Origin: Balanoglossus misakiensis
Lineage: Eukaryota; Animalia; Hemichordata
Reading direction: 5' to 3'
NCBI GenBank assembly: GCA_040954595.2
Contig: CM082583.2
Location: forward strand, 12,934,987 to 12,998,986
DNA: 64,000 nucleotides
Part shown: piece after piece, positions 12,084 through 62,665 of the stretch
Position numbering within the stretch: position 1 is the first letter of the stretch
Layout: every line of letters starts with the position of its first letter
The notes under the pieces: generated by a model
What the model was told of the DNA's origin: nothing
The model's input: only the letters and a program-made list of their open reading frames with translations
Databases searched by the model: none
Made by a program: the position numbers and the translations under genes

Positions 12084-13350
12084 TTTGTTCTATGACCTAT
12101 GACCTAAGGTCAAACACGGCGCCCTCTAGAGAGGTCAAGCTGTAGCTGCACCTGCGCAGAACAGTTTCTTCCTCATGTTAGTACAGAGATCTTGCAGGCC
12201 GGAGTGCCGTTTTGGAGCTCTGGCTAACCCACGGAAAAGCGCTGTGGGTTAACCCTGACTGGTTAATATTGCACTCAGAACTTGAACCAAGCAGTTTTTA
12301 TGGCTGTGTATTCTGCTGGTTTGAAGTTGCTCGCCAAGTGAAAAAAAAACCAGCCCTGCGAGTACAATGTACTTTCATTGTGTGCAGATGGTGACACCTT
12401 AGTCATATCATGGATCTTTAAGTTTACGGTCCATGGTTCTTCCGACTTCACATGTCAGAATGGTGAGCTACCTTGACCGCACCGTTCGCGATGCATGTCA
12501 AGTGTAAAGGCTGGTCCTCTTGCTCATTGTTAGGCGGTGAAAACGGCGTGACTTTGGTCTTCAAGCCATCTGCAACACATACATCAAACTGAGACTTGAG
12601 CTTGATGACCCACTACAGGATTTATTGTAGTGTGGGCCTGCTTGGTCTCATACATTTCTCTCTAGTTGAAGTAGTATGCTTGTTTTATTAGTAAGGGTAT
12701 TCTGGGCGATTCATTAAATTATACTTCAGATTTATTCAAATGATGGCAAAGTTGATATTTTGTATTTTCTATCAGACAATAAATGCTCAGAATCCACTTG
12801 TATTGTGTCTGTCTGTCCACTGTAAAAACACCATTTTGGAAATCTTTGGATCGAGTGATTGATTTAGATAAAGTTCTATAATGCGTCCTTTCGCACGTTT
12901 CGAGAGGAAACTACTGCCCAGGCTACCCCTGTTATATTCCAAATACCTGTCTAATTATGTGGAGAGCCTGGCTATCATTTAGTGCAAGTGAAAGGTGCAG
13001 GTATGTACATGCATATATAAACAGCAGTGTTTTGTTTCTTACCGAGACAAGAGAAGATAAGGCAACAACCTTTCCAGCAATAAAGCTTTCTCGTCATCTT
13101 TTCACGGTTTGTCGTCTTTCTATACAAATAATGTGTTGTTTGTTTGATCGAAGCACCCCCTAGGCATATATTTATTTGTTTCATCTAATTTAAGACATTG
13201 TGAATATTGCTCAGAGTCACTTCTAATTAGTTTTTAGCAAGCCTAGGGAGCCCTTTTGCCATAATACCAATATGCAATGAAAACATACAAATTACATATT
13301 AATACACTTGCATATGATATTTACATTCTTGTCTATACGCGCACGAAAAC

Positions 13351-27935: not shown

Positions 27936-35506
<7,571 letters not shown>

Positions 35507-40113: not shown

Positions 40114-40741
40114 CTTGGGAAATTGTAGCCGCTGGTGGAGAGCTCACTCTTGGACGCTTTTCTCACCGATATACACCAGAATGTGCATCGAAGTGCACCT
40201 GGTTAGTATACCGGGATGTAGCAAATGCTATCGCTGCCCACTTACCACTCGGATCGTTGGGAAGGGCATCCAAATATAGCTATGAATAAACGACAACGCA
40301 TCTAATAACACAGACAACCGAGCCAAACCTACACAAACATCATAGCTTATTGTGGGCATGCGCCGTCAAAACGATGGGGGGAGAGACCGAGAAAATAATT
40401 AGTCTCCCGTGCGTTGACATCAACATCGTCTTGGCAGAATCTCCAATGACCGTTGTGTTTGAATGAAACTTACATTTCATATAAGAATCTCGGTTAATCA
40501 CAAAAATAAAGTTTAGTTAAAACCAATTGACATAATCGTGATGATATTCTCATCTGGCCTTGTTACGGAGAACCTGACGTTTTTATTTACATGGCCCTGT
40601 TGCCTGCGCTTGCGCAATATTTCCAGTGCAGGTCATCTTCCGGGTAACACAACTTGCACATTTGATGATCGTTGATGTTGTCCTGCTTTCGAGACAAATG
40701 TATCCATAAACCTGAAACGAAACTTAACAAAGAAAGGAAAG
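40114..40741. promoter_or_regulatory. Putative bidirectional promoter between BTBD1/2 and PARP6/8
   Basis: Head-to-head start codons ~630 bp apart. The region is CpG-richer than its flanks and has an ETS-like CTTCCGG at ~40637. Function is inferred from the arrangement only. Confidence 0.5.
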
Positions 40742-43700: not shown

Positions 43701-46700
43701 CGAATAAAGAGAAGTTTGGACTCGGTGCTCAACTCAGGAAGTAAGTCTGCAATTTGTACATACTGGTAACTCCGAAATCAAACTGTAGAACATTCCTGTA
43801 CATATTGTCTCTCCAAGTACTGAGTAGTAGAATTGGTGAATAAGATACCATTTGTCTATTCTCTCTGCTGTCCAGGATTTTAGAACAGTTTCTGTCCAGT
43901 CACTGGAAGGAACTTAGCAACGACATGGTACAAGCCAAACACAGCGCTTTGAATGGCCGGCTGAATTTCGAGACGACTCACAGCTCATCACCACCATGTA
44001 AAAAACTAAATACAGGACAGCCTGCATATACTCATAGGTAAGGGAAGAGGTGCTGATGTAAGTCTTCCAGATTTTATATCAAAGATTGAAAAAATAACCA
44101 GACTGCATAATAAGCTGATAATGGAATGTTGTGATGTGAGGTCACAGTTAATTAATCCAATGACTTCTAACCCCTCTGCTCACTCAATTGACAGTGTGTC
44201 CGTGGACGAGAGCATGATCAATAAAGTGACTGACATGGGTTTCAGTTCAGAGGTCGCACACAAAGCACTCATTGTTACAAGAAGCAATATAGACGAAGCT
44301 GTCAATCTCCTACTTAACCAACCAGAAAGGTAAAAAAACAAACTTAATATATGCATGTATTCCCCATCACATCCACCTCATTACAGTGCAAGATAGCGTT
44401 CATACTTGCATGATAAACTCTTGGATTCATAGAACGCCATTCTCAGTGTTGTGCTTAGCAGCATCTTGTTCATAAAGATTAAAATTGGATTGGATTTCTG
44501 TAAAAAAAGATTATTGAAAGAGTGCCTACTTGGATTGTTCAACAATACTTTGAAAACTGACCTTGTTTCATGTTATCTTTTCCTCAGTATTGTAGATGTT
44601 CCGATCCCTCCAGAAAACACAGTCAACAAGAAAAACAAAAGTAAAATTTTTTCCCGGCAGAGGTCAATGCCAACCAGTAGTACTAGTGCAATGTTTGTAG
44701 ATCCAAACTTTGGAGTTAACGACGAAATACACTTGCTGCCTTCATTGACACAGGTATTGTTGTATAGATTTTGGATAATTATTAGCACAGGTTGTTTAAT
44801 TATGTTTTTGTGGGATTGTGTTGAAATGCTGTTACATTTTTGTTGTAAAAGAGACTACATGAAGATGTTGGTATAACAACTCTGATTTCTTTTTCCCTTT
44901 CAGAATGGTAAAAATGCGAAAAATGTTCCAACATTAGATTACGGTTTCCTGGTTCAAGTGATGCTTTATGTCAGGAACAGAATTCCGACGCTGAACGAGT
45001 ATTGTGTTGTTTGTGATGAACCACATGTATTTCAAAATGGTGCTATGCTGAAGGTAAGCATGAGCTATTTGATGTAATACATTAGGTATATGTGAAAGGG
45101 TTCATCATAAACTGACATTTATCGTTTCATTTGTCTCCAGCCTGCTGTGTGTGCCAGGGAACTGTGTGTCTTTGCATTTCAAAACCTGGGCGTCATGCAA
45201 GATGCGGCTGATGACATCGCAACGGGAGCCGAAGTCGTCGATTTACTGGTTGCCATGGGAAACGCGGCTGTGCGCTCCATCCGGAAGGAGCTGATATTTG
45301 ATCCGTATCCGATGCTTGTGGATCCGCAGAACCCGAGGGAGTTTGCTTTCAATCCGAAGGTACGGAATCATTTAATGGAATTTATCTGATGAGCTCTTGA
45401 TTATCAAGGTTCATAAAATTGATACAGTCACCTGGTGTTACGCGTGTTACCTTATCTGTGATCTGCTATCTTGTTTGTTACACAGAAAAAGAGTTTTTCC
45501 AGAGTGACAAAAGCGTTTGACAGTTTCATCTCAGTGCGAGAAATGATGCAGATATCCAACTCTATGGAAATGAAGAAACGAATGGACAAAGAAGACCCTC
45601 TAGCACACCCATTATTTCAGTGGTGAGTACAAGTCTTGTGTTTTACAAAACAGTTTCCCTGGCAAACTATGTTACCTAATAATTTTTGCGACAATTTATT
45701 TAGTGCTCTGATGGTATCATCATATTTCTTTGTAGGATCATATCGAGTAACAGATCGCATATTGTCAAATTGCCAGAAAGCAGGGTAAGTGACTGCAGTA
45801 CATTTCTAGTGCCTTGCAATGACATTCAGTGTTAGACACTTCTTCACATGTAATGCCGATAGTGAGTTACTTGGCAGCCCAGCTCTGATTTTCAACAGAT
45901 GCTGGTCTGTGGTTCATGTGTTCCAAAGATTTGCTCACTCAATCTTCTGGGTTGCCATTTCTATTGCAGCAAATCAAATTCATGCACACGGCACATCAGT
46001 TTCTGTTGTGCAGCAGTCCCCCAGCCAAAGAAGCAGCATTCCGTGCTTTCAAAAAGGAACTGGGAAGTGTCTTTGCATTCCAGTAAGTATGCACTGTCTC
46101 TCGTCTTAGCCTTCTTTGAAATTCATGAAAGGAATTGTTCCTAAAATATTGTAACTCCTCACTTGGACCCAAGACACCCAGTACATCACACTGACTGTCT
46201 ATCTTTATCCTTTCCAGCGGATCACATATTGAAAACTGGCATTCAATCATGAGACATGGCCTCATCAACGCTTCAGGAACCAAACACCAGGTACGGGGAT
46301 TTAATCATCATCATGGAAACAGAAAAGCTGCAGTCTTTGTAACACATGTGCTCATTAGTGGATGTGGTTAATATTTTGCATCTACATGTATTTGATACAT
46401 GCTTCCGGTAAATATGAAGTATTTAATTGTAATTCATTCCAGATGCATGGCAGTGCATATGGCAAAGGCATCTATCTGAGTCCCAACGCGAGTGTCTCCT
46501 TCGGCTATTCAGGAATGGGACATGGTTATCACAGACCAGTGGGTGGCAAAAGCCAGTCGTCACATGTCCCTTCTAAGGTATGTCTTCATAGTCCGTGAGA
46601 GAAATGTTGACTTTTTGGAGTCGTCCATCATTCTAAGTGAGTCTGTTCAAGGTTTCTCAAAAGCATTTAGTTTTTAGATCATGTTCATGTAATATACCTT

Positions 46701-47291
46701 TAGTAGTGCATCATGTATATTGGTAAATATGTGAGATATGATGCAGCATCAAAAACAATAAAGAGAATAATGCTATTTTTCTTTTAATTTTCAGTCAAAG
46801 AGCAAATCATCAAGGTTTCTACAGAGTAAAAATTTGACATGTATAGCACTGTGTGAAGGTACGTCATGTTCAGAGACTCTTATTTTCATTTCTGAGTGGA
46901 AAACGAGAGAGCTTACTGTACTTGTTTTACTATAACATTTTTTTTGTCTTTTGTATTCAAACAGTCATCAATTCCAAAGAACTGCGTAAAAATGGCAATA
47001 TTTGGGTTTGTCCCAACCCTGAACATGTGTGTACCAGGTTCTTCTTTGTGTGAGTATATAATCTTTCCCTCACTGCCATTTAAGAAGACATTTTTTAATG
47101 ACATGAGTCATATCAGCAATTTGCCATTCAGCAGGTTCTTTTGACACCACTGCATCTAATTCATCTGCCGTGTTTTGTTTTTTGACAGATATGAGGATGG
47201 ACAAGTGGGAGATTCCTCAGTGGACACAACAGTCGAACGATACCAGAGGGAGATCCTTAAAGCCATTGGTAATCAAACCTTTGATAGTTGA
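40742..47291 (+). CDS. PARP8: PARP6/PARP8-family mono-ADP-ribosyltransferase, ~22 exons, with an internal UBA domain
   Basis: Starts MSHRRKKMQADIKCV. Contains EIAIAWKVNRREPIVVRLH, RIPTLNEYCVVCDEPHVF..LKPAVCARELCVFAFQNLGVM (Cys-rich region), AHPLFQWIISSNRSHIVKLP, and catalytic FAFHGSHIENWHSIMRHGL..HGSAYGKGIYLSP..CIALCEVI..GNIWVCPNPEHVCTRFFFVYEDGQVGD. The H-Y-I triad indicates a mono-ART. Stop at 47289-47291. It is probably co-orthologous to both PARP6 and PARP8. Confidence 0.93.
43372..43411 (+). mobile_element. Fragment of a short dispersed repeat (probable MITE end) in a PARP intron
   Basis: ttaaccctttcaccaccatgatttggtccaaatccattgt matches the reverse complement of 48291-48330 at 34/40 nt (counted by eye). 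Confidence 0.55.
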
Positions 47292-48251
47292 GACGTTCTC
47301 CATGTCATTGTGGTTTGAGTGTGTGCATTCTGTTATCTTCGGATATTCCAAAACGGACTTTGAACAGGAATTGTACCAGCAACATGGAACTTTTGTTGCC
47401 TAGCACTGAACATTGCCTCATGTCAGAGAGACATGTACGACCAACTCTGCGCCGAGTGTACATATACAACACCTGCGTGAGGATTTCACTGCAACCCAAC
47501 AGAGACATTTACTTCTTATACAAGCAACGCGCTGAGCACAGACTTTATGCTTGTCGCAGTTCAGGATTAAAGGACACAGTTGATTGAAAGGGTTAATCAT
47601 GTTGTAGATTTCATTCATTATCCATTGATGCATCATTTAAGCATCCATCCGCATTTGAATTGATCTTTTGAATAAAAGTGACTTCTTCAATAAAGAGGCT
47701 ACCAAATTTAAGGTCATAGGATTCCAAACACACACACACATTGCTAAATATAGTGTCACTGGCCAATAGTGTCAAAAGCCTGCATCTACTCCATTTGTTA
47801 TGGCTCTATAGTCATTTTCATTCAAAGAAAATCTACACAATTTTTTGAGCAACTCATTACTTTTCCATTTCTGTATGATTTGTAGATAAGAAGGAACTAT
47901 CCATGACACTACTGACTGTTATCTCAGAGGAGACACTGATAATTGTAAAAGAAGTAATGTTATTGAAACACGCTAGATTGATGCTTGGTGAACAAAATGT
48001 CGGTAAAAGATATAAATGCTTTACAAGTACATGTATCACACGTGGTACATACCCAATGTTAGATGTGTGTCATGTCAATATGTTTTGTCTAGATGTAGGG
48101 AGAAAATGTTCCAATATGGTCGTGGCTTCTCAGTGTAGGCATCAGTTGTAGATCATAAATACAATCTCTCATGCCACATACAGCCAGTATTTTTTTTTCA
48201 AATCCAATGCCAAGGTTGTTTTGTCATTTTCACATCAGATGTGAATAGCAT

Positions 48252-48330: not shown

Positions 48331-49327
48331 AATCCCAGGTTAGAGGGACTCGGGTTAGAATCAGCTGTAGAGATGGATGTAGTCTTCACCTTTGCCGTCC
48401 TCCCTCTTTTACTGCTGCCCTCAATGCAGAACACAAACAGAAGAACATGAACAGCAACACCCAGCAAAGGGCAAAGGTTAAGACATGGCACCTATCTCTA
48501 CAGCCAACTGTACAATGAGGCCAATCTAACCATGCTGGTTGGATGATTTTTTCTTTAAAGACATTCGAAATTTTGGTGTGTACAAGTTTCAAGAGTGAGA
48601 AGACAAAATGTAGTGAAAGCTTTAATTGTAGACTCCTGCAGACTTTTCACAAGACTTTTAGTTGTATATTTTGTACAGCAAAGATGTTACAACTTTCCTT
48701 GTGCTTTTGTTGAAATTTTTTCATTAAAGAAATTTTTTCCATGACTTTACTTTTACTTGTGTCTATTGATTGGTGTGTGTGTGTGCATGTGATGACAATA
48801 TGACCCTATGACTCTATAAAATATGCAATATTTGAGTTAGAACAAAACAAACAGTTAGCGAGACATTTAGTGCAAATTTGTGGGATAATCAAAATACAGC
48901 TTAAACCCCCCCCCCCCCCCAATTAACCATTACATTTTCTATACCACTACATTTGTGCTTATAGACTAAGACTTATCTGCCTTTGAAAAAGTGACTCTCA
49001 CAAATTTGTAAAGTTCACTTTGAGGCACAGCTCAGGCATAACCTCTTGCTCAGTAGATATTCACCAAGAACCTTCAAAATGACTTTGCCTGCAGAGTAAG
49101 TTCCTTGTTAAAATTGTCCACATCAGATTCCTGGAAATAAAAAAGGTAAAAGGAGGAAGAATCACTTATTTGAAGACGCAGGAAGCCAAGTGTGATGTTT
49201 TAAATACTTGTGACTGAAGGGCATCTGCCAACCAGGCCTGTCCAGCACAGTCCTAACCATGTTCTCTCTGATGAACTGACTGCCTGCATAGACTGTCTAT
49301 GCTGTCTGTACTGTGCAGCTAAAATGG

Positions 49328-52249
49328 TTACAGACTGCTCACCTGTGGACTGTGAAGCATTGCCACTTTGGTCGAGTTTTCACAGCTGTTATTTTTGTCA
49401 TCATCTGAGAGGTGATACTTCATCAGTTTCACATCGTCACTTTCTGACTTCGACAGATTTTCCGAATCCTCACCGTCTGGCGCAGTTCTAACTGCAGAAT
49501 CAGGGACACAATCTGGTGATCGGGAAAGTAAGGCATCATCTTTCACTTCCAAACTTCCAGGTTCTGTTTCTCTGGGTGGTAATTTAATATTTTCCACTTC
49601 TCTCCCTTTGTGCTCTGCTATGTGTACAGCAACATCTAGGGATGGCTGGACATGTATTGTATCCTCTGCCTCAAACTCTGAGCACAGAATGTCTTCTGAC
49701 CTAACGTGATCACCACATATGTCGTCCTGAGTCGGTTCCTCATGGACGATGACATTGTGATTGCCAATCTGCACATTGGCACCAGTAATGTAAAAGTGTT
49801 GAATGATGGGTGAGTGTTGATTCTCATAAGAGGTTCCTGGCCCTGCCCCTTGTTCCTTGTTTGGTGGCAGCAAATAACCAGTAGGAAAACTTGATTTGAA
49901 GTCTTCCTCAGCCAATGACTTTTCCTTTCTTTGGTTGGGATTATCTTCCTTGCCTTTGTCACTACCGGCACACGATTCACCTGACTGTTGATCTTTCTTT
50001 CCAACTTCTCTTTTTGTGGATGGAGAAACTGTAGCAAGAGATCTTCCAGTCTCCACGGTCTGAGAATCACCCAAGTCTCCACTTTTCTTGTGGCCACCAG
50101 ACTTTGATAAATCCCCTTGTTTGGACTCTGTTTTTCCTCCAACCATTCTCAGAAGCTCTTTCAGCATATCAGCAGCTTTTTCTCTTTCATCTGGGTCTGC
50201 AAGCAGTGTTCCAATGTCAGTCTCTGCTGTCATTCTCTCTTTACTCTGTGATTGTTCGTCTCTTTCAGGAGACGTGTCAAAGGTTATACCACGACCCAGT
50301 GCACCTTGACCTTTATCTTCAAACGATGCTGATGATTGACTTGTTGGTTTACCACTGTCGACAACCTGCGACAGATGTTCTAGCTTTCCTTTCTCTTGCT
50401 CAAGATCCTTCAGTTTTGCTGATTCTCTCGCTGCTTGTCCAGTACCTACGGGTGATTGAGTGACTAACTTGATGGCTTCTCTAAAAACAATGCCAGGCAG
50501 TGAAGTGTCAAGGTTTGGTGCTGTTGTTTTGCCAGAATCAGACAAAAGCTTTAACAGCCCTGCCAGCGCTTCAGCTGTCATGGCAACAGGTGCTGTTCCC
50601 ACTTGCTGTTGTTGGTCATCAGGCTGGGAACCACTATTAGTTTTGTCTTTTGCTGTTTCATCACCATCACTTAGAGAAGACACCTTCATCTTCAAATCCA
50701 ATTCATCAATGTCTGCTTCTGCTTCCGTCAACTTCTTAGTGATTTCATCCTCGGCCTGATTTTCAAGTTCTGTTTTTCCTTCATCTTTCTTGCCTGTTTC
50801 ATTATTCTTGCCCAACTTCACTTCTTCACTCTGACCCACTTGTTCGGAATCGCTTTTGCTGCCACTGTTCACACCTTCGACTTTTAAATCATCTACCTTT
50901 TCTGTGCTGCTGTCAATGTTTGTATCTTTGTCTTTGAAATCATCAACTTGTCCTGCATGGCTGTTGCTTCCACTGTTTGCTCCTTTGACTTTTAATTCAT
51001 TCACTTTTTCTGTGTTGCTGTTCCTGACACTCTTTGTACTTTTCTTGACATTTAACTCGACCACATTTTCTTTTGATGTACTGGTATCTCCTCCTGAAAG
51101 AGCTTTCTGTTTGTTCTTACGTTTCGTTGCACTTTGCAATGCAACCGGTTGATCTGATTGACTGTTTTGCTGCACTTCAGCTGTACCTTGTCCTGTCCTT
51201 TTGAAATCTTTCTGATTCGGTCGACTTGTTTGGAGTTGTTCTGCTGTTTTTATTTTGTGTCTTTTGGTATTTGATTTTGAGTTGGTTTCTTTCGTATGCT
51301 TCTTTTGAATTTCCACACCTGTGTCAGGAACTGGATTTGTCTCGGAACCATGACCTCCCACAGTTTCACTCTCCAGTAAAGATTTCAACTCTTTCAGTCT
51401 TTTCTTCTGTCTTTCAAGATTCTTTTTCATTTCAATTTTCTCCTGGAGCCGCAAAATCTCTTGTTCCATTTCCAATTCCTTCAGCAATTGTCTTTCTTCT
51501 TGTTGCTTCTTTCTCCATTTTCCTTCTCTGCTCATCCTAAGATGTGGCGTCACAACTTTCAACAACGTTGACCGAAAATAACTACTTTCACATCCTATGT
51601 GCGATATACTCTTCAGTGCCAGTGGAATTTCCCTGTCATCTAACCCATCAACAATCGGGATGACAAAGTCTTGTTTTTCAGGATCTCCTAGTGAATCAAT
51701 CACACTGGTGTCCACACACTTCTGATGGAAATTGTTTCTCACTAAATCTTTGGACAGCCACACCAAAACGAATGAGCAACGATCAAAGGCATCCTGCAAG
51801 TTTTTGAAGATGGACTTTCCCCCTGGGAATTCATCAGGGAGACAAACTTTCAAATTCTGCTGTTCCAGGTCATTCTTTAGCAGTATCACCTTGTCTAGGT
51901 CCCTGTCACTGTAGAGAATCAGAGCATCATAAAACTCAACATATGTGCTACTACTGCTGCTGCACATTTCGTCTGAAAAATCATGTTGCATGATGTTGAT
52001 GACTTGTTCCCCGATCTGAGTATCTTCAGCCTGTGTAGGAAACAAAATGCTTTTAGAATTAGGCAAACTCTTGACAGGGTTCGCTTTCTTCTTGCCTTTG
52101 CCTTTCTTTCTGACTATCCCAGAACTCTCCTTTTCCTTAGTGGTCAAACTGACTGTGGTCTTTCCGGCCGGTGCTGGGTTGCTAGGATACGATGATGAGA
52201 GCGGCTCTGCATCTTCTTGTTCTGATGTATTCCTTGCAAACTCAGCCAT
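49328..52249 (-). CDS. TRIF/TICAM-like adaptor A: TIR - coiled coil - disordered region - RHIM (973 aa, single ORF)
   Basis: TIR at ~51540-51937 (FYDALILYSDRD..PDEFPGGKSIFKNLQDAFDRCSFVLVWLSKDL..DFVIPIV..SSYF..REGKWRKKQQE) parallels TICAM1 as recalled (FYNFVILH..LQDAIDHSAFIILLLTSNF..CVIPF..RKAMWRKEQD). An E/K/L-rich coiled coil follows. RHIM PIIQHFYITGANVQIGNHNVIV is at ~49745-49810. Confidence 0.88.
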   Translation of the reverse strand: MAEFARNTSEQEDAEPLSSSYPSNPAPAGKTTVSLTTKEKESSGIVRKKGKGKKKANPVKSLPNSKSILFPTQAEDTQIGEQVINIMQHDFSDEMCSSSSSTYVEFYDALILYSDRDLDKVILLKNDLEQQNLKVCLPDEFPGGKSIFKNLQDAFDRCSFVLVWLSKDLVRNNFHQKCVDTSVIDSLGDPEKQDFVIPIVDGLDDREIPLALKSISHIGCESSYFRSTLLKVVTPHLRMSREGKWRKKQQEERQLLKELEMEQEILRLQEKIEMKKNLERQKKRLKELKSLLESETVGGHGSETNPVPDTGVEIQKKHTKETNSKSNTKRHKIKTAEQLQTSRPNQKDFKRTGQGTAEVQQNSQSDQPVALQSATKRKNKQKALSGGDTSTSKENVVELNVKKSTKSVRNSNTEKVNELKVKGANSGSNSHAGQVDDFKDKDTNIDSSTEKVDDLKVEGVNSGSKSDSEQVGQSEEVKLGKNNETGKKDEGKTELENQAEDEITKKLTEAEADIDELDLKMKVSSLSDGDETAKDKTNSGSQPDDQQQQVGTAPVAMTAEALAGLLKLLSDSGKTTAPNLDTSLPGIVFREAIKLVTQSPVGTGQAARESAKLKDLEQEKGKLEHLSQVVDSGKPTSQSSASFEDKGQGALGRGITFDTSPERDEQSQSKERMTAETDIGTLLADPDEREKAADMLKELLRMVGGKTESKQGDLSKSGGHKKSGDLGDSQTVETGRSLATVSPSTKREVGKKDQQSGESCAGSDKGKEDNPNQRKEKSLAEEDFKSSFPTGYLLPPNKEQGAGPGTSYENQHSPIIQHFYITGANVQIGNHNVIVHEEPTQDDICGDHVRSEDILCSEFEAEDTIHVQPSLDVAVHIAEHKGREVENIKLPPRETEPGSLEVKDDALLSRSPDCVPDSAVRTAPDGEDSENLSKSESDDVKLMKYHLSDDDKNNSCENSTKVAMLHSPQVSSL

Positions 52250-52553
52250 GATTTGACTTTTTGGGTGCCTCTTTTGTCGGTGTCAGCAACTGGACATTAA
52301 CCTTATTCAGACTTGCTGTTCCAACAGGAGGAACCTCCTTGGTTAGTAAAAAGACCATGGACGTCCATGGTAAGACTGTTATGAATTCGTCTGTTTTTCT
52401 CCAATCGTGATATTTCCTCACTAAAGTATCAACCTTTCCTTATCCTGTTCGTCTCTGGTCCAAAATGCAATGATATGATTTCTTTCTTGTTGCCAGTAAT
52501 ATGTTTTTGTCGGTGTCTGCGACGACAAACAGTCGAGTTATTTTTATCACAAA

Positions 52554-52798
52554 GGGGAATCCCCGGCGTTTACGTCACTTCCGAGTTTGTGTGATGACCT
52601 TAGGTCGTGCAGGTCAACTGTAAAATTGGTCAAAGCACAGTCCCTCTGTGGTCAAAGGTCCCACCGGGTCTGAATTCGCATTCTTTCTTGACATCTTATA
52701 GAACATGTGCGATTTTCGATGTTTTATTTGTCAGAGACAATGGGAAGAAAATTGTGTGTGAACCGGAAGCACATGGACTCCATGCCTGGGGGAATCCC
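52554..52798. promoter_or_regulatory. NF-kB-type sites plus an ETS-CRE composite upstream of TIR-RHIM gene A
   Basis: GGGGAATCCCC at 52554-52564 and GGGGGAATCCC at 52788-52798. TTACGTCACTTCCG (minus strand CGGAAGTGACGTAA) at 52570-52583 and CCGGAAG at 52763-52769. All lie 300-550 bp upstream of the ATG. Confidence 0.65.
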
Positions 52799-52927
52799 AG
52801 AGAATCGCAGCGCTAAGGAGTGATTGAAAATACATGTACATTACATCCCATTCATGGAACTACATGTATTGCCCCACAGAGGAAGGCATATGACTGCATT
52901 GGTCTATATTCACATTATAAAAAAAAT

Positions 52928-53049
52928 CATTACATGCCCTAATGTGAAATTTACAGCATTAGTTGCTGCATTTGATAAGGTCACATGACATTACATGCCC
53001 TAATGTGAAATTTACAGCATTAGTTGCTGCATTTGATAAGGTCACATGA
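52928..53049. repeat. Perfect 61-bp tandem duplication
   Basis: cattacatgccctaatgtgaaatttacagcattagttgctgcatttgataaggtcacatga occurs at 52928-52988 and again at 52989-53049. Confidence 0.95.
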
Positions 53050-54093
53050 TTTCAGATGAAATAGTTCTGGTCTTAGTAAAGTTTAATTAGATGGTTGCTT
53101 AGGAAACCACTTTGTACATTATGGTTCCCTATATGCTGTAACCCTCATGGCCAGTCAGTGCTGTTCACTGTTACGGTTAATCCTCATTCTTGAGTTGCAT
53201 TCATTTTTATTAACATTCCAGCTTTAATATGTACAGATGATCATGCTTTGTGTGAATACATGAAACTGTATATTTCTCTTCATGTAAATGAATCATTTTA
53301 ATTAATTTGACAAGTCTAGAACACCATGGATTGTCATGCTCCACCGTAGGAAATGTTTCATGAAGTGCTAATTTGAAAATAAAATGGTCATAAAATGATT
53401 ACCATGTTATGCATCAAAATTTGTTCCATCCTACAGACAGTTACATGACTGACAATGAAATGCAGCCAGTGTATACATGTTCCTGAAAGCCTCTACACAG
53501 AGTTCTATTTTGATGAAAGCAGATGGAGATACTAATATACACATACATTTTTCTCTACTTCAGATAATATCTGAAAAGCTAAGCTTTACATGTAAATGAT
53601 GCCCCTATATTGTTTTTTTTTACACCTTTGATATTAAGTCTCATTTTTTAAAAAAACATCGGATGTAAAGTGTCCACACTGAGACAAGAAATTATAAAAC
53701 AATCGAAGTTTGACATTTCCGCTTTGCAGTAAGCAAGTTAGAGTGCGCTGCACTTTTAACAGCAATTTTGTTTTTCACAAAATTTCAGATTTTTTGATTA
53801 TTTGTTTATCATATCACTACACGTTAATGCCATTATTAAAAAATTTACAAATTTATCTACAATGGTGGCCGGCTAAATTGCTGAAACAATATTCTCTGGT
53901 ATGTTGTACTGATTTCTTTCAGTCTCTAAACTTCTTTTCCTCCCGCAGCTGTGCAAGTAGTCCATAGATGGCTGACCACTGGTGCTGTTTAGGTCTTTTG
54001 CTTAAAACTCGCAGTCCCTCAAAGGAGTGATTTGCTTGTGTCTGTAGATGTCATCATCAATTACCAGCACTGTGTCCTTGCTGTTAGAAAATG

Positions 54094-57000
54094 TCACATC
54101 TGAATCACTGGATGGTGCATTCTTTGGATGTTTTCTTGTTGCAATCTTTGCGCTTTTTCTCGTCTGTCACTGAAATGAAACACAGGGTAGGGATTTACCA
54201 GCCAATGGATTTGGTTAATTTGTGGATCTTTATATTCTTAAATACAAGTGAGAATTAGGAAACTTGCTTTGAACTGACCACTCACCTAAAGCTGGACTGC
54301 TCCTTGAAGAGCGTACAACTTGAGGGGAACGTCTTCCAGTTGAATCAGTCACCACTTCACCAGGAAGACGGTTGCTTCTCTGTTGTTTTTGTGCATCTTC
54401 TCTCTTACTGACCTGGAAAATATTGTTGAGAGAAAATATTTTTATTATGTTCTATGTTATTGTCTTTCCTTGATTTTCTAGTGTTTTACCCAAATTAAAG
54501 GGTATCAGCCAATACCCTGTAATTGTTCTGGGGAGACATTACAGCATTTTGTGGATAACTCTATATAAGCCTACCTGAACTTCTGTTTTCTTCTCCTTGA
54601 ATTTGTCTTTGGTTCCTGCACCTTTCTCCTCCCCAGGGTCAGTCTTTGTGTACAGCTTCATGACTTTAGTTTCCCCTTCTCCTGGTTCATATTCCACATC
54701 TCCACTTTCCAAATCTGGTGGCGCTTGATACAACTCATCGTGGTACGTCGCACCAGATCTAGTGCCAGCTCCACTTGGAGAACCGTCATGCTGAACAGAC
54801 CTGAGGCTGCGTGGACTCTTTGGTGACGTTTCTGGCAGACTCCCTTCAGGATTCACCCTTGAGGGAGTTGGGGAATTTGTCGAAGGGCCAGTCGCTTCAT
54901 TGCTGCCCGTTGCAGAAGGGGATGGAACAAACTCGATTTCAGGAACAGAATCATCCCCACCTTCATGCCGCTGATACTGCTGCTGCTGCTGGTGCAAACC
55001 TCTCACCACGTTCCCTTGTCCAATCTGCACCACGTTTGCCCCAGTAATGTAGTAGTGTTGAATGATGGGTTGGTTTTGACTCTCTGCAGACTGGCGGTTT
55101 TGATTGTGAACCAGAGCTTGTCCTCCCTTCAGTTCTTGTTGTTGGTTGCCATGTTCAAGATCATGTTCTTCCTTATTTATACATCTGCTAGTACCTTTTT
55201 TGCTGACCCCTTTCATCATCGGCTGTCTTGCCTGACCAGGCATTTCTTCGTTTACTTTTGATCTTTGCATTTTTTCCAACTGCTTCAATCTCTGCTCCTT
55301 CGCTTCCAACTCTTTTTTCAGCTGTAAAAGCCTCTCTTCTTCCTTCACGTCTCTCTTGGAATATTCCTGGCGTTCGTGTTTGCGGAACTGCCTCAGGGCT
55401 TTCTCTTCCTCCAGCGTTTTTCGCTTTGCATCAGCTGCATACTGTTTCCTCAGTTTGTCATCATCGCTGATTGGCTGCACCGCTGTCCCACCAATATTTT
55501 CAACGCCTCTTGCCAATCGCTGATCCTTCTTCCGTCTCTCTTCTTTCGCCAGGAGCTTCTCTCGTTTTGCTCTCTTCAACATCTCTTTTTCCGCGTCCCT
55601 CCTCTCCTGCTGCTCATACTCCCTGGCCGCTCGCTTGTCGGTGGCAACGGTCTTCTGCAGCTGCTTCTTGTAGTATCGGTTGCTAGGCCTCAGACAGGAC
55701 AGGCTCTTCAGCTCGCTGGGCATCTGCTTCTCTTCCACGCCGAAGGCGACCGGCACAACGTAGTCATGCTTCTCTGGGTCATCCAGCGACTCCACTAGAC
55801 TTGTGTGGATGTTCTTCTCACACCACTTGTCCTGCAAGAAATTCTCTGTCAGCACCACCACCACAAAGGAACTGTAGTTGAGAGCGTCAGCCACATTCCT
55901 GAAGACCGATTTCCCTCCAGTGAAGTCTTCTTGAAGGAGCACTTTGCGGTCCCAACCTTCCAACAGCTCAGTTAGATCGTTGACTTTATCCTTATCTAGC
56001 TTGCTGCCGAGTATGAAAGCATCGTAATATTCTACTGGTTTCGATAGGCTGTACAATTCCTTAGGAGACAATTCAACGTCTTCAAGACTGAGTGAATCCA
56101 TAGTAATACACTGCATGTCATCTACCAGACTGGGAACAGCATCTTTCTCATAATCAGTGTACGACGACGACTGCGATGGTGTTCCACTTTCTTGTCTGGT
56201 CTCAAGGGATGAAACAGTCTCTGGAGGGTTAGATTCTTTTTCTGTGTCTGTTTGCCTTTCAAGTGGAACAGCATCTTGTTCGTCGGATCCACCCATGCCG
56301 GAGAGATAACTGGACTGCTCTTGTAGGAATGTATGATCACTTTGGTTCTGTAAACTAGATATACTAGTAGCCACTACAATTCCTGAATCTGTGTCGTTGG
56401 GTTGCACTGGTACACCCAGGTCCTCAGATGTGCTTGGTATGTCTTCTTGCCTATCCGCATTCTGCACATCGCGGTTCAACTCGTCTGCTTCTTGGTCCGG
56501 GGTTTCTGAGAACACCGGCTGGTGCGTGTCCTGCATTGCCATGTCTTTCACTTTGGCATGTTGGTACTCATCATAGGAAGGGGCTGCATCAGTGACGACA
56601 TCCGACGACAAAAGACTTGGACTAGAAGATGAACTTGGAATCCTGCTTGAGTCATCGCACTCCGGGTTTTCTTCAAGCTCAATTATCGCTTCAATACTCT
56701 CCACCTCTAAGCCACTGGCCAGTCTTGCAGCCTTGCGAAAACATCTCTGCGCATTCTTTAACTCCTTTGCCACAACAGAATTTGAAATCAATTTTGTCCA
56801 GTTTTGTCTCCTGTTTATTAGAATTCCTAAAAAGAGCCAAGATAAAGCACCAACGCAGTTGTCTTCTCTCACGTCATGAAAAAGCTGAACAGACTCCTTG
56901 AAGTACTCCCGTTCTTTGTTTTCTGGAAACTCGAACTGAATGAGGTCTTTGACAATTATGAAGAGATAACAGCAATAGGCCAGTTCAAAGGTCCATTGCG

Positions 57001-57514
57001 AGAGATCCTGGAGTTGGGCTTTCTTTCCGATGCTAATTGCCTGTCGGTAACTCTCCAGGCCCAAGTCTACACTGAAGACACCTTGGCAAAGATAGCAACA
57101 AGCAACATTCAGTTCAAACACAGCACGTGCTTGACAACATAAGCACATAGCCTCCTTCGCTTTGTCAGAAGTCTCACCAACAACTTTCAAACAGTGCAAA
57201 ATGTCCTTCTGTTTATCTTGACACTGGTCTCCATAAATGTGAGCCAAGTTCAGCAAAGCATTTATGTTCTCTGAGTCAGACTTCAGAATGTCTTCAAAGA
57301 TTTCCACCGCTTCCTTGGTGCGTCCTTGAAGATAGGTCAGAACGCCTTTCAAGTGTGCCACAGCATTTCTCTTCAAAACCACAATCTTGGTTTCTGGTTC
57401 GGCTTCATTCTTCTGCAACCTGGAAAGTAATTCCTCACGTTGATCTTTGGTAAATCGGTGTATGGCTGCCAACTGTGGACATTCAAAATGCCCCAGGCCA
57501 GTAATAAACTCCAT
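54094..57514 (-). CDS. TRIF/TICAM-like adaptor B: TTC22/IFIT-like TPR - linker - TIR - coiled coil - RHIM
   Basis: Main exon 57514-54575 (980 codons, donor CAG|GTAGGC), with probable extra exons 54412-54286 and 54169-54094. N-terminus GHF..RNAVAHLKGVLTYLQG..EAVEIFEDILKSDSENINALLNLAHIY is TPR-like. TIR YYDAFILGS..EDFTGGKSVFRNVADALNYSSFVVVVLTENFLQDKWC..DYVVPV is at ~55620-56030. RHIM PIIQHYYITGANVVQIGQGNVV is at ~55004-55069. The last two exons are less certain. Confidence 0.88.
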
Positions 57515-59384: not shown

Positions 59385-60151
59385 TGCACATCGAACAGTT
59401 CTGCAGTAAACACCCGACTTGATGAATATGTAACTTCAGAACAATACGTTTACGAGTGTCGTTGGAATCACCCCTATGGAATGATGTTGTCCGTATTCCT
59501 TCAAAGCAAGGATTAGGCCCTATATATGAGAACAATTAATGGACACTTCTCCATAGAAGTATATATTTCGTATGCAGCATAAAAATTAATAAAAAGTTAT
59601 TCTTCTAAACACTGAAATATCACTCCATAGCTGTAGACTTCTAGGTCCTACTACTACATTCACACTGTCGCTTGTTCGCCTATTGTGCAGAATGAAAAAC
59701 TTGTAAAGAAGCTGTTATGGTTTATGGGGTACTGGGGTCGAAGGAATTGGTCATCACTGGGAAATATGGTTATCTGAGGTTGGAGATGGAAACAATGCAA
59801 CCAGTTTACTGTGTTTGGCAGTATATTAAACTCTATTTTGTGCTATGATAACTGTTTTGCCAGCTTCCTCTACTCTTCCTGCTACTGCTTAGGATTAGGG
59901 CAGCGCCCCCATGCGGCAATGAACGAGGCTGATGGTTGTCAAGCTCGCACGAGGATATCCCTGCTGGTACGTTTATCATCTCGTTTGGAGCCTTGGCTCA
60001 CTCGAGAACGTTGTTTCCAGCAAACCAAGGCAAAACCTCGAGCTATACTGAAGTGCAGTTAGGTGTAGTGGTGAACAGCAAGTTGCTGTGAAAATTCCTA
60101 TCACACTCACAGTCCCAAACTGCCAAATTTGGACAAAGGTCACAGGTCAAG

Positions 60152-61849
60152 ATGTCTTCCAGTGGAAATTCTGTTGAGAGCAAGGTTAGCTCAAACATGA
60201 ACCAATCAACTGTTGGACTGTCTCAAAACTTTCCCAGGGTGCTTGTTGAATTGGCAGCCAAAGAATGTTTTGAGATACTGCTTGTAGAGTTGTACAGGTG
60301 CAAGCTTTGTGGTGTCTATTCCAGCTTGGTTAGAAACGATATGATGGAACATTTCAAAGCCACACACTGCAGTCATTGGGAACATGCTCTGGAGAAATGT
60401 GAAGCCCAAACAGACAATGTGACAGGCGCTGTTTTGGCTGTAAAACCCCAATGCAGCAGGGGTGAGATTTTGCTGCAACCAGCAAGTCTGGCAAAGAGGA
60501 TGGCGGCGACTGCACCCTCATTGAAATCATGCGAGGGATTGCAAAAGGTGGAGTGTGTCACGCCAGCTGACAGCACAGAAAAGAATGCAAATACTGACGC
60601 GGCTAAGTGTCTGCAACATGCAGAGATTAATGTGACGACATCAGCAGGGAGCACTGAAGAGGTTGATGGGGAACGTTCTGATGATGATGATGATGATATT
60701 GGTGCTGCTAATAGCACGAGTCTGCACTGCAGAGAAGTGAAGACTGGACAACAAGATGCAAATAAAATGGATGTGAGGGATGATTCAGCAGTCGACAAAG
60801 AACCTCAAGTGGTTTTGGAAAGCAAGACTGTTCCAGACCCGAAAGGTCTAACGCAGACTAAAGCAGAAACTCAAGCAAGAATGTCTACAGAGACAATTAA
60901 TTCAAACAAGATTTGTGTGCAGCCACCCATACTGTGGAAGTGTTCTGCCTGTGAAATATATTTTCAAACCCGTTATTACCTATCCTTGCACAAAAAGGCA
61001 TGCCACAAACCATGCAACAAGAAGTTCAAGTGTCATTTTTGCGAGAAGATGTTCTCGTGGCCGGGTCTTGTTAGGCACAAAAGAAAGAAAGTCTGTCAGA
61101 AGCAAAAGGTGAAGAAGACATACCCATGCTCAGTCTGCCAGAAAGTCTTCAATGACTCCTCTGGCTTGAAAGATCACATGCACACACACAGTGGTATAAA
61201 GAAGTTTTTGTGCCAGTTCTGTGGCAAAAGCTACAAACATCCCAGGTCTTTGAGGATGCACTTGGTACTCCACCGAGAAAACGCTGAAATCTTCAAGTGT
61301 AACGAGTGTGATTACACGAGCAAATTCAGAAATTGTGTTGAGAAACATAAACAGACGCTGCACAGAGCTGAAGGAGTGAAATTTTACAGTTGCGAAGTGT
61401 GCGACTTCCAGACACCGTACCTGTGTAGCATTACAAAGCATCGTGAGGCAACACACTCTGAGGACAGGAATTACATGTGTGAGATATGTGGCCGGGTTTA
61501 TAAATTAGAATCTTCGCTGAAAGAGCACATGGCAAATCATGACGGTAAAGAGTTTAGGTGTGAGCAGTGTTCATACGTTGGATTGACAGTTTCTAGACTG
61601 CGTGAGCACATGAAGATACACCTGCCTGTGGAGTCACGCAAGTACGCGTGTCCTCACTGTGATTGGCGGGGACTTACAAAGGATGTACTGCGTCGTCACA
61701 TGTTCAAGCACACTGGAGAGAAACCATTTCATTGCCAAGAATGTAACACTGGTTACATAAACCGCTACGGATTCAAGAGACATCTCCGAAAACGCCACCC
61801 AGAGCAGTATGTTTCATACACACACGCCAACCATTCAGCAAAAGAATGA
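60152..61849 (+). CDS. C2H2 zinc-finger protein (565 aa; one isolated N-terminal finger plus ~10 tandem fingers)
   Basis: Repeated CxxC-x12-Hx3-4H units, e.g. YPCSVCQKVFNDSSGLKDHMHTH, and an HTGEKPF linker. Uninterrupted ORF. Confidence 0.92.
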   Translation: MSSSGNSVESKVSSNMNQSTVGLSQNFPRVLVELAAKECFEILLVELYRCKLCGVYSSLVRNDMMEHFKATHCSHWEHALEKCEAQTDNVTGAVLAVKPQCSRGEILLQPASLAKRMAATAPSLKSCEGLQKVECVTPADSTEKNANTDAAKCLQHAEINVTTSAGSTEEVDGERSDDDDDDIGAANSTSLHCREVKTGQQDANKMDVRDDSAVDKEPQVVLESKTVPDPKGLTQTKAETQARMSTETINSNKICVQPPILWKCSACEIYFQTRYYLSLHKKACHKPCNKKFKCHFCEKMFSWPGLVRHKRKKVCQKQKVKKTYPCSVCQKVFNDSSGLKDHMHTHSGIKKFLCQFCGKSYKHPRSLRMHLVLHRENAEIFKCNECDYTSKFRNCVEKHKQTLHRAEGVKFYSCEVCDFQTPYLCSITKHREATHSEDRNYMCEICGRVYKLESSLKEHMANHDGKEFRCEQCSYVGLTVSRLREHMKIHLPVESRKYACPHCDWRGLTKDVLRRHMFKHTGEKPFHCQECNTGYINRYGFKRHLRKRHPEQYVSYTHANHSAKE

Positions 61850-62665
61850 CACTCTTTGTAGTTAGTTGTCATGGGAGCGTTTTATTTCAATTTCAGAGGC
61901 AAGAATCTGACACAAGATATGTTATGAAAATGGAACTTTACAAGTTAAAATCAGACTACAATATGCACATATATACATGTAAGATTGTCTGAACAATTAT
62001 GCAAATAAAAATATTCTGATTGAAATTTGCTGTCATGTAATCTCACTCTGTACAATCATCTATATAATAATTAAATTATGTACATTAATATTTACGAAAA
62101 ATAAATTAGATTTAAAATTAATGCACACTGAATCATTTAAGAATATATTAATACATTTGCATATAATACTGTTATCTTTCAAACGTAATATCAACCAATC
62201 GAAAGAAATTATTCATAAATTAAAATGTACATGTATATCAGAAATTGTAAATTTTCAGAATGGAAGGCATAAACTTGATACGTTAAAATCATAAATTAAC
62301 AATAGTGGTGAACAAAATCTTTGGAGAACTGTGTTATTGTTAATACACTAATGTGTCAGTACTTAACACTAATATTGCAATTACAGTATTGTAGAAAGTC
62401 CTTCAATTGTGTATTACTTTTCAATCATCAAGAAATTCATCCATCTTTTAAAATACAAATCAATGTAAGTACATCATCCTTTAGTTCAAAATTCCAATCC
62501 CCAAAACATTTTAATTTTTTAAAGATTTAATTGTAAATGGTTATACTGTTGATTGTTGATGTTCCAAAAACATCATCTGTGTTTGATTGTTCAAGATTGT
62601 TTTCTCGTTATCTGCTTAAGCTGTCATCCTTATAGGGGTGGAGGATTTGAGATTGATGGACGTTG

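Follow-up and report, generated by a model that had tools for sequence, protein, structure and literature searches.

In TLR signalling, the TICAM family is represented by TRIF (TICAM1), a long protein with an IFIT-like front, a TIR domain and a RHIM, and by TRAM (TICAM2), a copy with a short front and without a RHIM, and membrane-targeting signals belong to the system. The acorn-worm genes treated here are likewise one copy with a long front beside another with a short one. TRIF's N-terminal domain has been described as IFIT-like and inhibitory (PMC5397763), while IFIT genes have been reported from jawed vertebrates only (PMC3688568). Amphioxus possesses a single TICAM lineage (bbtTICAM) in which a TICAM-type TIR without catalytic glutamate is followed by a RHIM; it activates NF-κB via RIP and its RHIM and does not induce interferon (PMC6043800). 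It has no pLxIS-type interferon output. Its VETD/ADP motif near the start and its basic C-terminus have counterparts in the acorn-worm proteins described here, which form a tandem non-chordate pair, whereas amphioxus TICAM has no folded front domain and also lacks the long charged helix and the CaaX box of one of the two.

Insect IMD carries a death domain and no TIR, and signals to NF-κB through an amyloid-type, cryptic RHIM. It is cut at LEKD/A-type sites, whereupon an IAP-binding motif is exposed (PMC6626034, PMC8738736); for the proteins studied here we predict a comparable arrangement close to the N-terminus, in which a caspase-type site precedes an IAP-binding-like motif that begins with Ala, a likeness that is a motif-level analogy. 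In reviews, TRIF homologues outside chordates are given as not known (PMC6043800; PMC9334734; PMC7075850). One study on oysters put forward an 'as yet unknown adaptor' in a TRIF pathway that is otherwise present (PMC4892480). The terms searched retrieved nothing on the question from PMC10210618 (main text and one supplement), PMC6224433, PMC8662601 and PMC13600944.

The tandem gene pair and its RHIM-like motifs

The window, i.e., the whole stretch of 64,000 nucleotides from Balanoglossus misakiensis that was analyzed, contains two neighbouring reading frames on the minus strand in the list of open reading frames, genes A and B, for which the following models were derived:

49343..52249, minus strand: exon 1 of gene A, an open reading frame with a predicted donor site at 49343; groups with Ptychodera XP_070542422/3
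49074..49130, minus strand: possible last exon of A, 18 codons, no CaaX (splice consensus only, without homology support)
54575..57514, minus strand: exon 1 of gene B, residues 1–980, an open reading frame
54286..54412, minus strand: predicted exon 2 of B, GT-AG sites, frame kept; similar on inspection to the end of the Ptychodera protein
54105..54169, minus strand: predicted last exon of B, a lysine-rich tail with a CTIQ end, i.e., a CaaX-type prenylation box

Read unspliced, gene A extends from 49328 to 52249 with its stop at 49328 and encodes 973 amino acids. Gene B is predicted to be spliced, the two further exons bringing it to 1043 amino acids in total, and its exon 1 encodes, in this order, an IFIT-like domain, a caspase/IAP-like site, a TIR domain, a charged helix, a RHIM and a TKV motif. 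BLAST of A against B yields two significant stretches: one is the TIR with the following helix (72/211 identical, E 2e-32), the other the RHIM-like segment (20/29, E 2e-8). The sequence-only reading had described adjacent same-strand TIR-RHIM paralogues sharing a TIR motif, and this agrees with both frames, with Pfam TIR_2 and with the BLAST comparison, the quoted motif being visible in an alignment in which the TIRs are 40% identical; its statement that the remainder cannot be aligned holds for BLAST, but D/AxP and TKVxxL motifs are also common to both proteins. It had mentioned neither the IFIT-like fold and the CaaX exon, nor the IMD-like caspase/IAP site, the κB sites before A and the mollusc relatives.

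The nearest relatives of A and B are acorn-worm proteins. Gene B is 44% identical to Ptychodera XP_070542427 over 996 alignment columns, the same adjacent A/B pair is apparently present in Ptychodera flava, and a word-based homologue search using A gave no matches. Judged from the sequences, the duplication is specific to acorn worms (six TIRs in one clade, 100/95) and thus separate from that of TRIF and TRAM, beside which it represents a second, independent event. The genes next to the pair are ARRDC-, BTBD1/2-, PARP6/8- and UBL7-like (Pfam domains and inspection), and their human relatives presumably lie in the 19p13/5q/15q paralogon, which we take to hold TICAM1 and TICAM2.

Behind the TIR domains, the following elements were located:

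51365..51541, minus strand: charged helix of A (composition, crude heptad test)
55250..55636, minus strand: charged helix of B, coiled coil or single alpha-helix (composition, crude heptad test)
49748..49810, minus strand: RHIM-like motif of A, VQIG core at 826
55004..55069, minus strand: RHIM-like motif of B, VQIG core at 829
49352..49381, minus strand: TKVxxL motif of A, also in Ptychodera A isoform X1
54650..54694, minus strand: conserved TKVMxLY motif of B, 14/18 and 11/18 identical in two orthologues

The extended RHIM pattern, taken as given in PMC9440496, is present in A and B, arises in 11 (A) and 10 (B) of 20,000 shuffles and has no occurrence other than these two when all six reading frames of the window are scanned. 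A RHIM-like motif thus follows the TIR as previously claimed, but it is located about 150–210 residues ahead of the C-terminus and not at it. Pfam TIR_2 lies above its cut-off in A and in B. The Pfam RHIM profile was not reached with whole A or whole B; on fragments, A obtained 12.6 bits where 20 are required, B was not listed, and a true TRIF (P0152) likewise stays below the cut-off with 15.2 bits. When a RHIM profile from 10 invertebrate sequences was run against 177,635 PDB sequences, five RIPK1 RHIM entries ranked first (E 0.04–0.15). The RHIM matches are individually weak. Among the window's B, Ptychodera and Saccoglossus, the RHIM, D/AxP and TKV motifs stand out as conserved islands, the RHIM of B being kept in the two relatives amid divergent linkers. 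A search for an acorn-worm RIPK1 with the RHIM profile returned 20 proteins, none of them named or annotated as a kinase, which is a weak negative. Equally weak is the negative from a published list of RIPK1 proteins, which includes lancelets, Lingula and Dreissena but no hemichordate and whose text states that echinoderms have none (PMC12119088).

The coiled coil reported earlier after the TIR corresponds in position to the very charged helix. A crude test of its heptads gave only 33–42% hydrophobic residues even at the most favourable positions, so that it may be a single alpha-helix. A complex prediction for the TIR-helix parts of A and B, which the earlier reading saw as a possible partner pair, was run without alignments and scored 0.03. 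An IRF read-out had also been proposed, yet its motif pLxIS is absent from A, from exon 1 of B and from Ptychodera B. The sole TRAF6-type motif in B was set aside because it overlaps the start of the TIR.

Upstream of gene A, two further elements were noted:

52554..52583, no strand assigned: palindromic κB-type site with adjacent motifs that we take to be CRE-like and ETS-like, about 305 bp before the ATG of A (consensus match only)
52789..52798, no strand assigned: second κB-type site, about 540 bp before the ATG of A

With these two sites within 550 bp upstream of A, and 13 κB-type matches within the window versus 3.2 expected, B could be the signalling adaptor and A an NF-κB-induced feedback inhibitor or decoy that enters and damps the TIR assembly. 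In amphioxus, TIRA is an NF-κB target that inhibits TICAM signalling (PMC6043800). Both Ptychodera A models lack the RHIM and the DAxP site, and in the 69-row tree described below the TIR of A has a longer branch than that of B (0.53 vs. 0.20). However, the RHIM is kept in the window's A and in the A-type protein of Glandiceps, the fact that the RHIM regions are 69% and the TIRs 40% identical fits co-assembly equally well, and inducible genes may just as well be amplifiers. We therefore regard an inhibitory A as possible, though doubtful.

The D/AxP site and the putative membrane anchors

A D/AxP motif is common to A and B ahead of the TIR:

56573..56602, minus strand: VVTD/AAPS of B, predicted caspase cut after D309 that would expose an A-x-P IAP-binding-like end (analogy to insect IMD)
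52199..52222, minus strand: EQED/AEPL of A, a weaker D/AxP site at residue 13, no hydrophobic P4 residue

The IMD-type combination of Asp and Ala-x-Pro is, at the level of sequence, clear in B and atypical in A, and we predict, by analogy, caspase cleavage and IAP BIR binding at this position. Among 34 invertebrate N-termini, which are related sequences, DAxP is the top three-letter pattern (11/34 vs. 1.21 expected, a count exceeding each of 827 shuffled maxima), and VxTD/AVP is spelled by the four patterns ranking directly behind it. DAxP occurs in none of the 53 outgroup N-termini, in six of the 23 from the mollusc clade and in one of 12 from TRIF. The site may also be an off-switch or serve release only, in which case the A-x-P end would be no IAP ligand and signalling would proceed by the RHIM alone as in amphioxus TICAM: caspase cleavage inactivates human TRIF, caspases generally prefer small residues after Asp, and the motif is missing in most vertebrate and many mollusc members. 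Yet a proline three places past the cut is unneeded for a plain caspase site, and DAxP and AVP are nevertheless enriched; moreover, the site lies 13–30 residues from the start in A-type, amphioxus and mollusc proteins, as it does in IMD, and a cut there removes no domain. A mere off-switch or release site appears rather unlikely, albeit worth keeping in mind.

The predicted last exon of B provides a polybasic CaaX box (CTIQ), and isoform X1 of the Ptychodera protein likewise has a basic tail with a CDIQ end, both of which isoform X2 lacks. This C-terminal Cys-a-a-X with upstream basic residues is a candidate prenylation signal. CaaX-like ends were found in 8/33 invertebrate family models, corresponding to roughly five independent genes, and in 0/19 vertebrate ones; they are absent from the Saccoglossus B model and from the window's A, for which scanning revealed no convincing last exon with such an end. 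The family's recurring putative anchor lies at the C-terminus (CaaX or basic tail). For A, a basic patch had been put forward as a membrane target:

52085..52111, minus strand: basic patch RKKGKGKKK of A (seen in the sequence)

The patch exists, but the A-type proteins of Ptychodera and Glandiceps have no equivalent ahead of the TIR (net charge +4 at best vs. +7). Myristoylation as in TRAM was rejected, as neither A nor B begins with MGxxxS/T; both bear a RHIM, unlike TRAM.

Affiliation of the TIR domains and the front domain of gene B

51542..51940, minus strand: TIR domain of A, TICAM type, no catalytic Glu (Pfam TIR_2)
55637..56035, minus strand: TIR domain of B, TICAM type, no catalytic Glu (Pfam TIR_2)

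For both domains TICAM2 is the best PDB match (E 1.6e-11 for B, 2.4e-5 for A) and outranks TLR2, TIRAP and MyD88; it is also the best named ESM Atlas match of the A TIR (0.90). In a 69-row tree, A and B group with amphioxus TICAM (Branchiostoma P0008, P0165 and P0166, treated as such by tree position), TRIF and TRAM in one clade (94/86), outside which TLR, ankyrin-TIR, STING-TIR and bacterial TIRs are placed; the clade also takes in mollusc TIR-RHIM proteins and one TIR-death protein from a starfish (bootstrap 88–94). The same clade was recovered from 49 rows with TIRAP added (88/84, TIRAP outside, inner branching order left open) and by FastTree on 152 rows (support 0.94), all trees having been calculated without MyD88 and SARM1. 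Together with the acorn-worm relatives, the trees uphold the earlier proposal of a duplicated TRIF/TICAM-type TIR-RHIM system in an invertebrate. Identity with the amphioxus TICAM gene was rejected, since the closest relatives of A and B come from acorn worms.

The data are compatible both with one-to-one orthology to chordate TICAM and with its absence. In the 69-row tree, the acorn-worm TIRs join the starfish TIR-death and mollusc TIRs (96/89), and this group is sister to chordate TICAM (97/89), as would be expected if A and B were a sister lineage, a TIR-RHIM paralogue serving another receptor class, and chordate TICAM had no true acorn-worm orthologue here. We consider this rather unlikely, because an AU test does not reject acorn-worm and chordate TICAM as one clade (p 0.284), the order is open in the 49-row tree, amphioxus has the same TIR-RHIM order and the D/AxP motif, and synteny, presumed as above, favours orthology.

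56660..57514, minus strand: IFIT/TTC22-like TPR domain at the N-terminus of B, residues 1–285 (predicted fold)

An AF2 model of this domain from three sequences reached a pLDDT of 87.6, while an earlier one from two sequences was poor (48). The best 12 rows of the fold comparison are all IFIT1/IFIT5, with residues 4–285 matching IFIT1 15–267 (Z 14.6, rmsd 4.5, 233 aligned), which confirms B as the TPR-bearing copy; ESM Atlas gave 0.95 for TTC22 and 0.94 for IFIT. Foldseek alone found nothing under E 0.001 with either model, and sequence searches against the PDB returned generic TPRs only. Unlike TRIF, A and B have no match to the Pfam TRIF N-terminal domain (PF17798); hhalign of the B front domain against it scored 14.6, equalled or exceeded by 6/40 shuffles, and it is not among the best 50 rows listed in either VIA-align run.

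Since the domain matches IFIT1/IFIT5 from its first to its last residue and IFITs bind RNA 5' ends (structure entry titles), B might be a one-piece sensor in which the binding of foreign RNA ends sets off TIR-RHIM assembly of the protein itself, no TLR being required. This is quite improbable: the match, at 10–14% identity, covers the front half of IFIT only, residues 15–267 of about 460, and the part beyond it closes the RNA pocket and is hence missing in B, where the front half is joined with a TIR adaptor; by charge, the domain is neutral to acidic (35 K+R vs. 41 D+E), and TTC22 scores as high as IFIT. That the TIRs are NAD-cleaving enzymes like SARM1, merely clustered by the RHIM, can practically be dismissed, for although many invertebrate and bacterial TIRs among the matches keep the catalytic glutamate, its column holds Cys in A and Asn in B, and Glu in 2/65 clade members as compared to 71/87 others. 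NADase identity was rejected on these grounds, and the TIRs are read as scaffold adaptors, not enzymes.

A possible signalling route and its ancestry

Sequence, tree and fold together give A and B TICAM-type TIRs and RHIM-like motifs, B an IFIT-like domain and the pair an origin by acorn-worm-specific duplication. The explanation that we favour, with a probability of roughly 0.6, is that A and B are non-enzymatic TICAM-family adaptors acting towards NF-κB through assembly of their TIRs, amyloid formed by their RHIMs and, possibly, IAP binding after exposure by a caspase. With TRAM and TRIF as the model, a TLR or another TIR receptor would quite likely nucleate the A/B TIR assembly. B would probably be held at the membrane by its prenylated C-terminus, with alternative last exons switching the anchoring off, and the adaptor would itself contain the anchoring function that TRIF receives from TRAM. 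Following amphioxus TICAM, we consider it reasonably probable that the clustered RHIMs would draw in a partner with a RHIM, either one another or, should it exist, a RIPK1-like protein, and thereby FADD and a caspase-8-like protease. The next step has about even prospects at best: the caspase could cut VxTD/AxP, and the new N-terminus could, as in insect IMD, bind an IAP ligase, leading via K63 chains to TAK1/IKK. More tentatively, the cut in B might also shed the IFIT-like domain, a conceivable inhibitory cap as in TRIF, and A, with its upstream κB sites, might be an inducible copy that joins and tunes the B assembly. As output, NF-κB is likely and cell death possible, whereas IRF3 activation of the pLxIS type is not expected.

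On a broader and clearly more speculative reading, the TRIF/TICAM pathway would be of bilaterian ancestry and not a chordate invention, and would go back to a membrane-anchored TIR-RHIM adaptor with an IMD-like caspase/IAP switch; the IFIT-like cap retained in B would reveal the origin of the TRIF N-terminal domain, the mollusc members would fill the place of the adaptor that is missing upstream of RIPK1 in molluscs, and in the starfish members a death domain would replace the RHIM. With the acorn-worm and mollusc candidates, MyD88-independent TIR signalling would date back to the ancestor of deuterostomes or of bilaterians, and the front domain of B would connect that of TRIF with IFIT/TTC22. 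The caspase/IAP motif would bring the TRIF and IMD branches of animal immunity under a common logic of activation; it also occurs in amphioxus TICAM, where existing assays apply. Bivalve TIR proteins were reportedly covered by Gerdol in 2017. TICAM2 is also the best solved-structure match for a relative from Haliotis.

Domain anatomy of the gene pair

Two long open frames lie on the minus strand where the sequence-only reading had proposed a tandem pair of TIR-coiled coil-RHIM genes, namely gene A (49328-52249) and gene B (starting at 57514), and the pair is real, conserved and richer in features than that reading had seen. The domain anatomy is established: both genes encode a TIR domain (Pfam TIR_2 above cut-off in each), and alignment of A with B gave 72 identical residues out of 211 over the TIR and the following helix, and 20 out of 29 over the RHIM-like segment (E = 2e-8). 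The part described as a coiled coil is helical and highly charged, but coiled-coil heptads were weak in a crude test. With two further predicted exons, B would comprise 1043 residues; in A, a strong donor site lies ahead of the apparent stop and an 18-codon candidate last exon is predicted. Inspection of the spacer between B and A revealed two copies of about 63 bases, lying side by side, at 52925-53050.

The predicted last exon of B is lysine-rich and ends in CTIQ. In Ptychodera, isoform X1 terminates in CDIQ, an end that X2 lacks, and Gigantopelta isoforms vary likewise. Among invertebrate models, 8 of 33 (about five genes) have a CaaX-like end, versus none of 19 vertebrate ones; six of 87 outgroup proteins have a cysteine at this place, and one passes the same filter. 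The N-terminal basic patch of A, for which membrane targeting had been suggested, has no match in A's relatives. Eight distinct kappaB-type sites are present in the window, two of them 305 and 540 bp upstream of the ATG of A.

A word-based search with the TIR of B retrieved, among 206 candidates, a Ptychodera flava protein as the only homologue (70% in the TIR, 44% overall). The top five of a profile search against 1.84 billion representatives consisted of one Branchiostoma protein and four from acorn worms, i.e., Ptychodera B, a Saccoglossus B-type protein, a short-front Glandiceps protein and a Ptychodera protein grouping with A. As acorn-worm proteins are closest in the searches, the window probably comes from an acorn worm, and identity with the amphioxus locus is ruled out. 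In Ptychodera, the A-type accessions XP_070542422/3 immediately precede the B-type accessions XP_070542424-7, on a contig of equal length, and the tandem pair is therefore very probably conserved there, as judged by accession order, not DNA. In Patella caerulea, locus tags indicate at least three neighboring copies of a TIR-RHIM gene of the TICAM clade.

Family placement of the TIR domains

The claim of a TRIF-type pair stood with regard to the TICAM kind but not to TRIF proper, as neither PF17798 nor the pLxIS motif was found; A and B also fail the tests of TRAM proper. Among solved structures, TRAM (TICAM2) was the best match for the TIRs of B (E = 1.6e-11), A (2.4e-5) and a Haliotis relative (4.7e-4). 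In all trees, a single clade united amphioxus TICAM, TRIF, TRAM, six acorn-worm TIRs, TIR-death proteins (one named member, Acanthaster) and a mollusc group (Gigantopelta, Haliotis, Patella, Pecten, Argopecten, Mytilus and Potamilus among the named members), several group labels being based on Pfam or inspection. The predicted grouping of A and B with TICAMs was thus recovered in trees that did not include MyD88 and SARM1, with moderate support of 0.94 (FastTree, 152 TIRs), 94/86 (69-row IQ-TREE) and 88/84 (49 rows, TIRAP added), the two smaller sets being hand-picked from the 152. We put the probability that A and B belong to the TICAM family at about 0.85.

The six acorn-worm TIRs form a clade of their own (100/95), so that the duplication into A and B is separate from that of TRIF and TRAM. 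The 69-row tree places starfish and mollusc proteins as their sister group (96/89); an AU test did not reject their grouping with chordate TICAM (p = 0.284). Of 65 clade members, 2 carry the catalytic glutamate of NADase TIRs, as against 71 of 87 others, and its position is occupied by Cys in A and Asn in B. Six mollusc TIR-RHIM proteins (P0035, P0064, P0140, P0146, P0147 and P0149) fall inside the TICAM clade, and CaaX ends occur in several of them.

Membership of A and B would challenge the stated range of the TICAM kind: in their passages on this topic, published studies give no known TRIF homologue for non-chordates (PMC6043800), let the cascade arise in chordates only (PMC9334734), treat TRIF-like TIRs as chordate (PMC7075850) and describe oysters as lacking TRIF, with an unknown adaptor that may serve instead (PMC4892480). 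Full-text searches of open papers, mostly of their main texts, brought up no TICAM described from acorn worms or molluscs, and an earlier mention of these proteins or of the caspase/IAP-like motif is possible.

RHIM and caspase/IAP-like sites

The extended RHIM pattern, following the definition passage of PMC9440496, arose 11 (A) and 10 (B) times per 20,000 shuffles. The Pfam RHIM profile matched 3 of 10 invertebrate RHIM-like segments; B was not among the three and A stayed under the cut-off, as does a true TRIF. When a profile built from these ten segments was run against the PDB, the five top-ranking entries were RIPK1 RHIMs (E = 0.04-0.15), followed by one further protein, which we take to be the viral RHIM protein M45, while RIPK3 came ninth amid unrelated acyltransferases. 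The RHIM of B is a conserved island (14/26 and 11/26 identical residues versus 10/57 and 7/57 in the preceding linker). A RHIM-like motif occurs in 24 of 40 listed invertebrate clade members, seven of these 24 having been retrieved through the RHIM itself, in none of the eight TIR-death rows and in neither Ptychodera A model. No partner kinase was named or annotated among the 20 proteins from the RHIM search, a weak negative. In the parts concerned, the published RIPK1 list includes lancelets, Lingula and Dreissena, not hemichordates, and RIPK1 is reported as lacking in echinoderms (PMC12119088), which the RHIM-less TIR-death branch fits; a survey reports many invertebrate RHIM proteins, with no TIR ones named in the passages concerned (Kajava 2014; PMC4262963).

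In the TIR-death branch of the clade, four proteins (P0014, P0018, P0047 and P0066, one from Acanthaster) lack a RHIM and carry a death domain behind the TIR. The Glandiceps protein P0006 has two tandem RHIM-like motifs and a C-terminal basic tail with CILQ. Downstream of the RHIM, a TKVxxL(Y/H) motif is strongly conserved across acorn-worm A and B proteins (54650-54694 and 49352-49381, minus strand), and lancelet and scallop proteins have acidic ETxVK motifs at similar places.

Caspase/IAP-like sites (DAxP) are predicted in B directly after the front domain (VVTD/AAPS) and in A at residue 13 (EQED/AEPL, without a hydrophobic P4). Rows in which fewer than 25 residues precede the TIR were excluded (six mollusc-clade, one TIR-death, one TRIF, 34 outgroup); in the remainder, DAxP lay ahead of the TIR in 5/6 acorn-worm proteins (0.43 expected; absent from Ptychodera A), 2/2 from amphioxus, 6/23 of the mollusc clade, 1/8 TIR-death, 1/12 TRIF, 0/6 TRAM and 0/53 outgroup proteins. 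Its absence from Ptychodera A and the missing hydrophobic P4 in A speak against the caspase/IAP reading. Of 11 proteins fetched later, close kin of the earlier set, three were dropped and six of the eight scorable ones had it. Since DAxP had been chosen after being seen, all three-letter patterns were scanned blindly in 34 invertebrate N-termini: DAxP came first (11 versus 1.21 expected, exceeding each of the 827 shuffled maxima), with TDA, VxxDA, AVP and DxVP next; the enrichment is inflated by kinship among the sequences, but the motif extends across acorn worms, lancelets, gastropods and bivalves. The lancelet TICAMs P0008 and P0165 have IVTD/AGP just downstream of the RHIM in addition to VETD/ADP near the start.

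On the likeliest reading, with all functional steps inferred from TRAM/TRIF, amphioxus TICAM or IMD, a receptor would nucleate TIR assembly, RHIM amyloid would follow, and then a caspase cut, IAP-dependent ubiquitin chains and, as output, NF-kB; A may amplify or inhibit. There is a good probability that A and B work like TICAM, and single-residue changes would give sharp tests.

Front domain of B and gene neighborhood

An AlphaFold2 model of the front domain of B from three sequences (pLDDT 87.6) ranked IFIT1 first against 48,161 chains (Z 12.1, rmsd 5.0, 211 aligned), and in a second comparison the first 12 rows were all IFIT1/IFIT5 (best Z 14.6, rmsd 4.5, 233 aligned, B residues 4-285 matched to 17-267; 12.1 for the first unrelated row), values that helical repeats easily reach. 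Independently, ESM Atlas pointed to TTC22 (0.95) and IFIT (0.94). In TRIF, the N-terminal domain is described, in the passage concerned, as IFIT-like and autoinhibitory (PMC5397763). Profile comparison of the two domains revealed no likeness, and amphioxus TICAM, unlike B, has no such front domain; common descent is therefore only possible.

The genes next to A and B have arrestin, BTB-BACK-PHR, UBA-PARP and ubiquitin-UBA domains and read, from sequence, as ARRDC, BTBD1/2, PARP6/8 and UBL7.

Other genes in the window
9700-12100, UBL7-like gene
13300-16700, DEG/ENaC gene
28000-35600, arrestin-domain gene
38100-40150, BTBD1/2-like gene
42500-48200, plus strand, PARP6/8-like gene with internal UBA domain
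60100-61850, C2H2 zinc-finger gene

Their human relatives (ARRDC, BTBD1/2, PARP6/8, UBL7) presumably lie on 19p13, 5q and 15q, the TICAM1/TICAM2 paralogon. TICAM1 is located at 19p13.3, adjoining ARRDC5, and TICAM2 at 5q22. A frame at 6684-7154 (plus strand), without a Pfam match, has by inspection a BH3-like stretch, LRQLADTF, and is possibly a BH3-only apoptosis gene.
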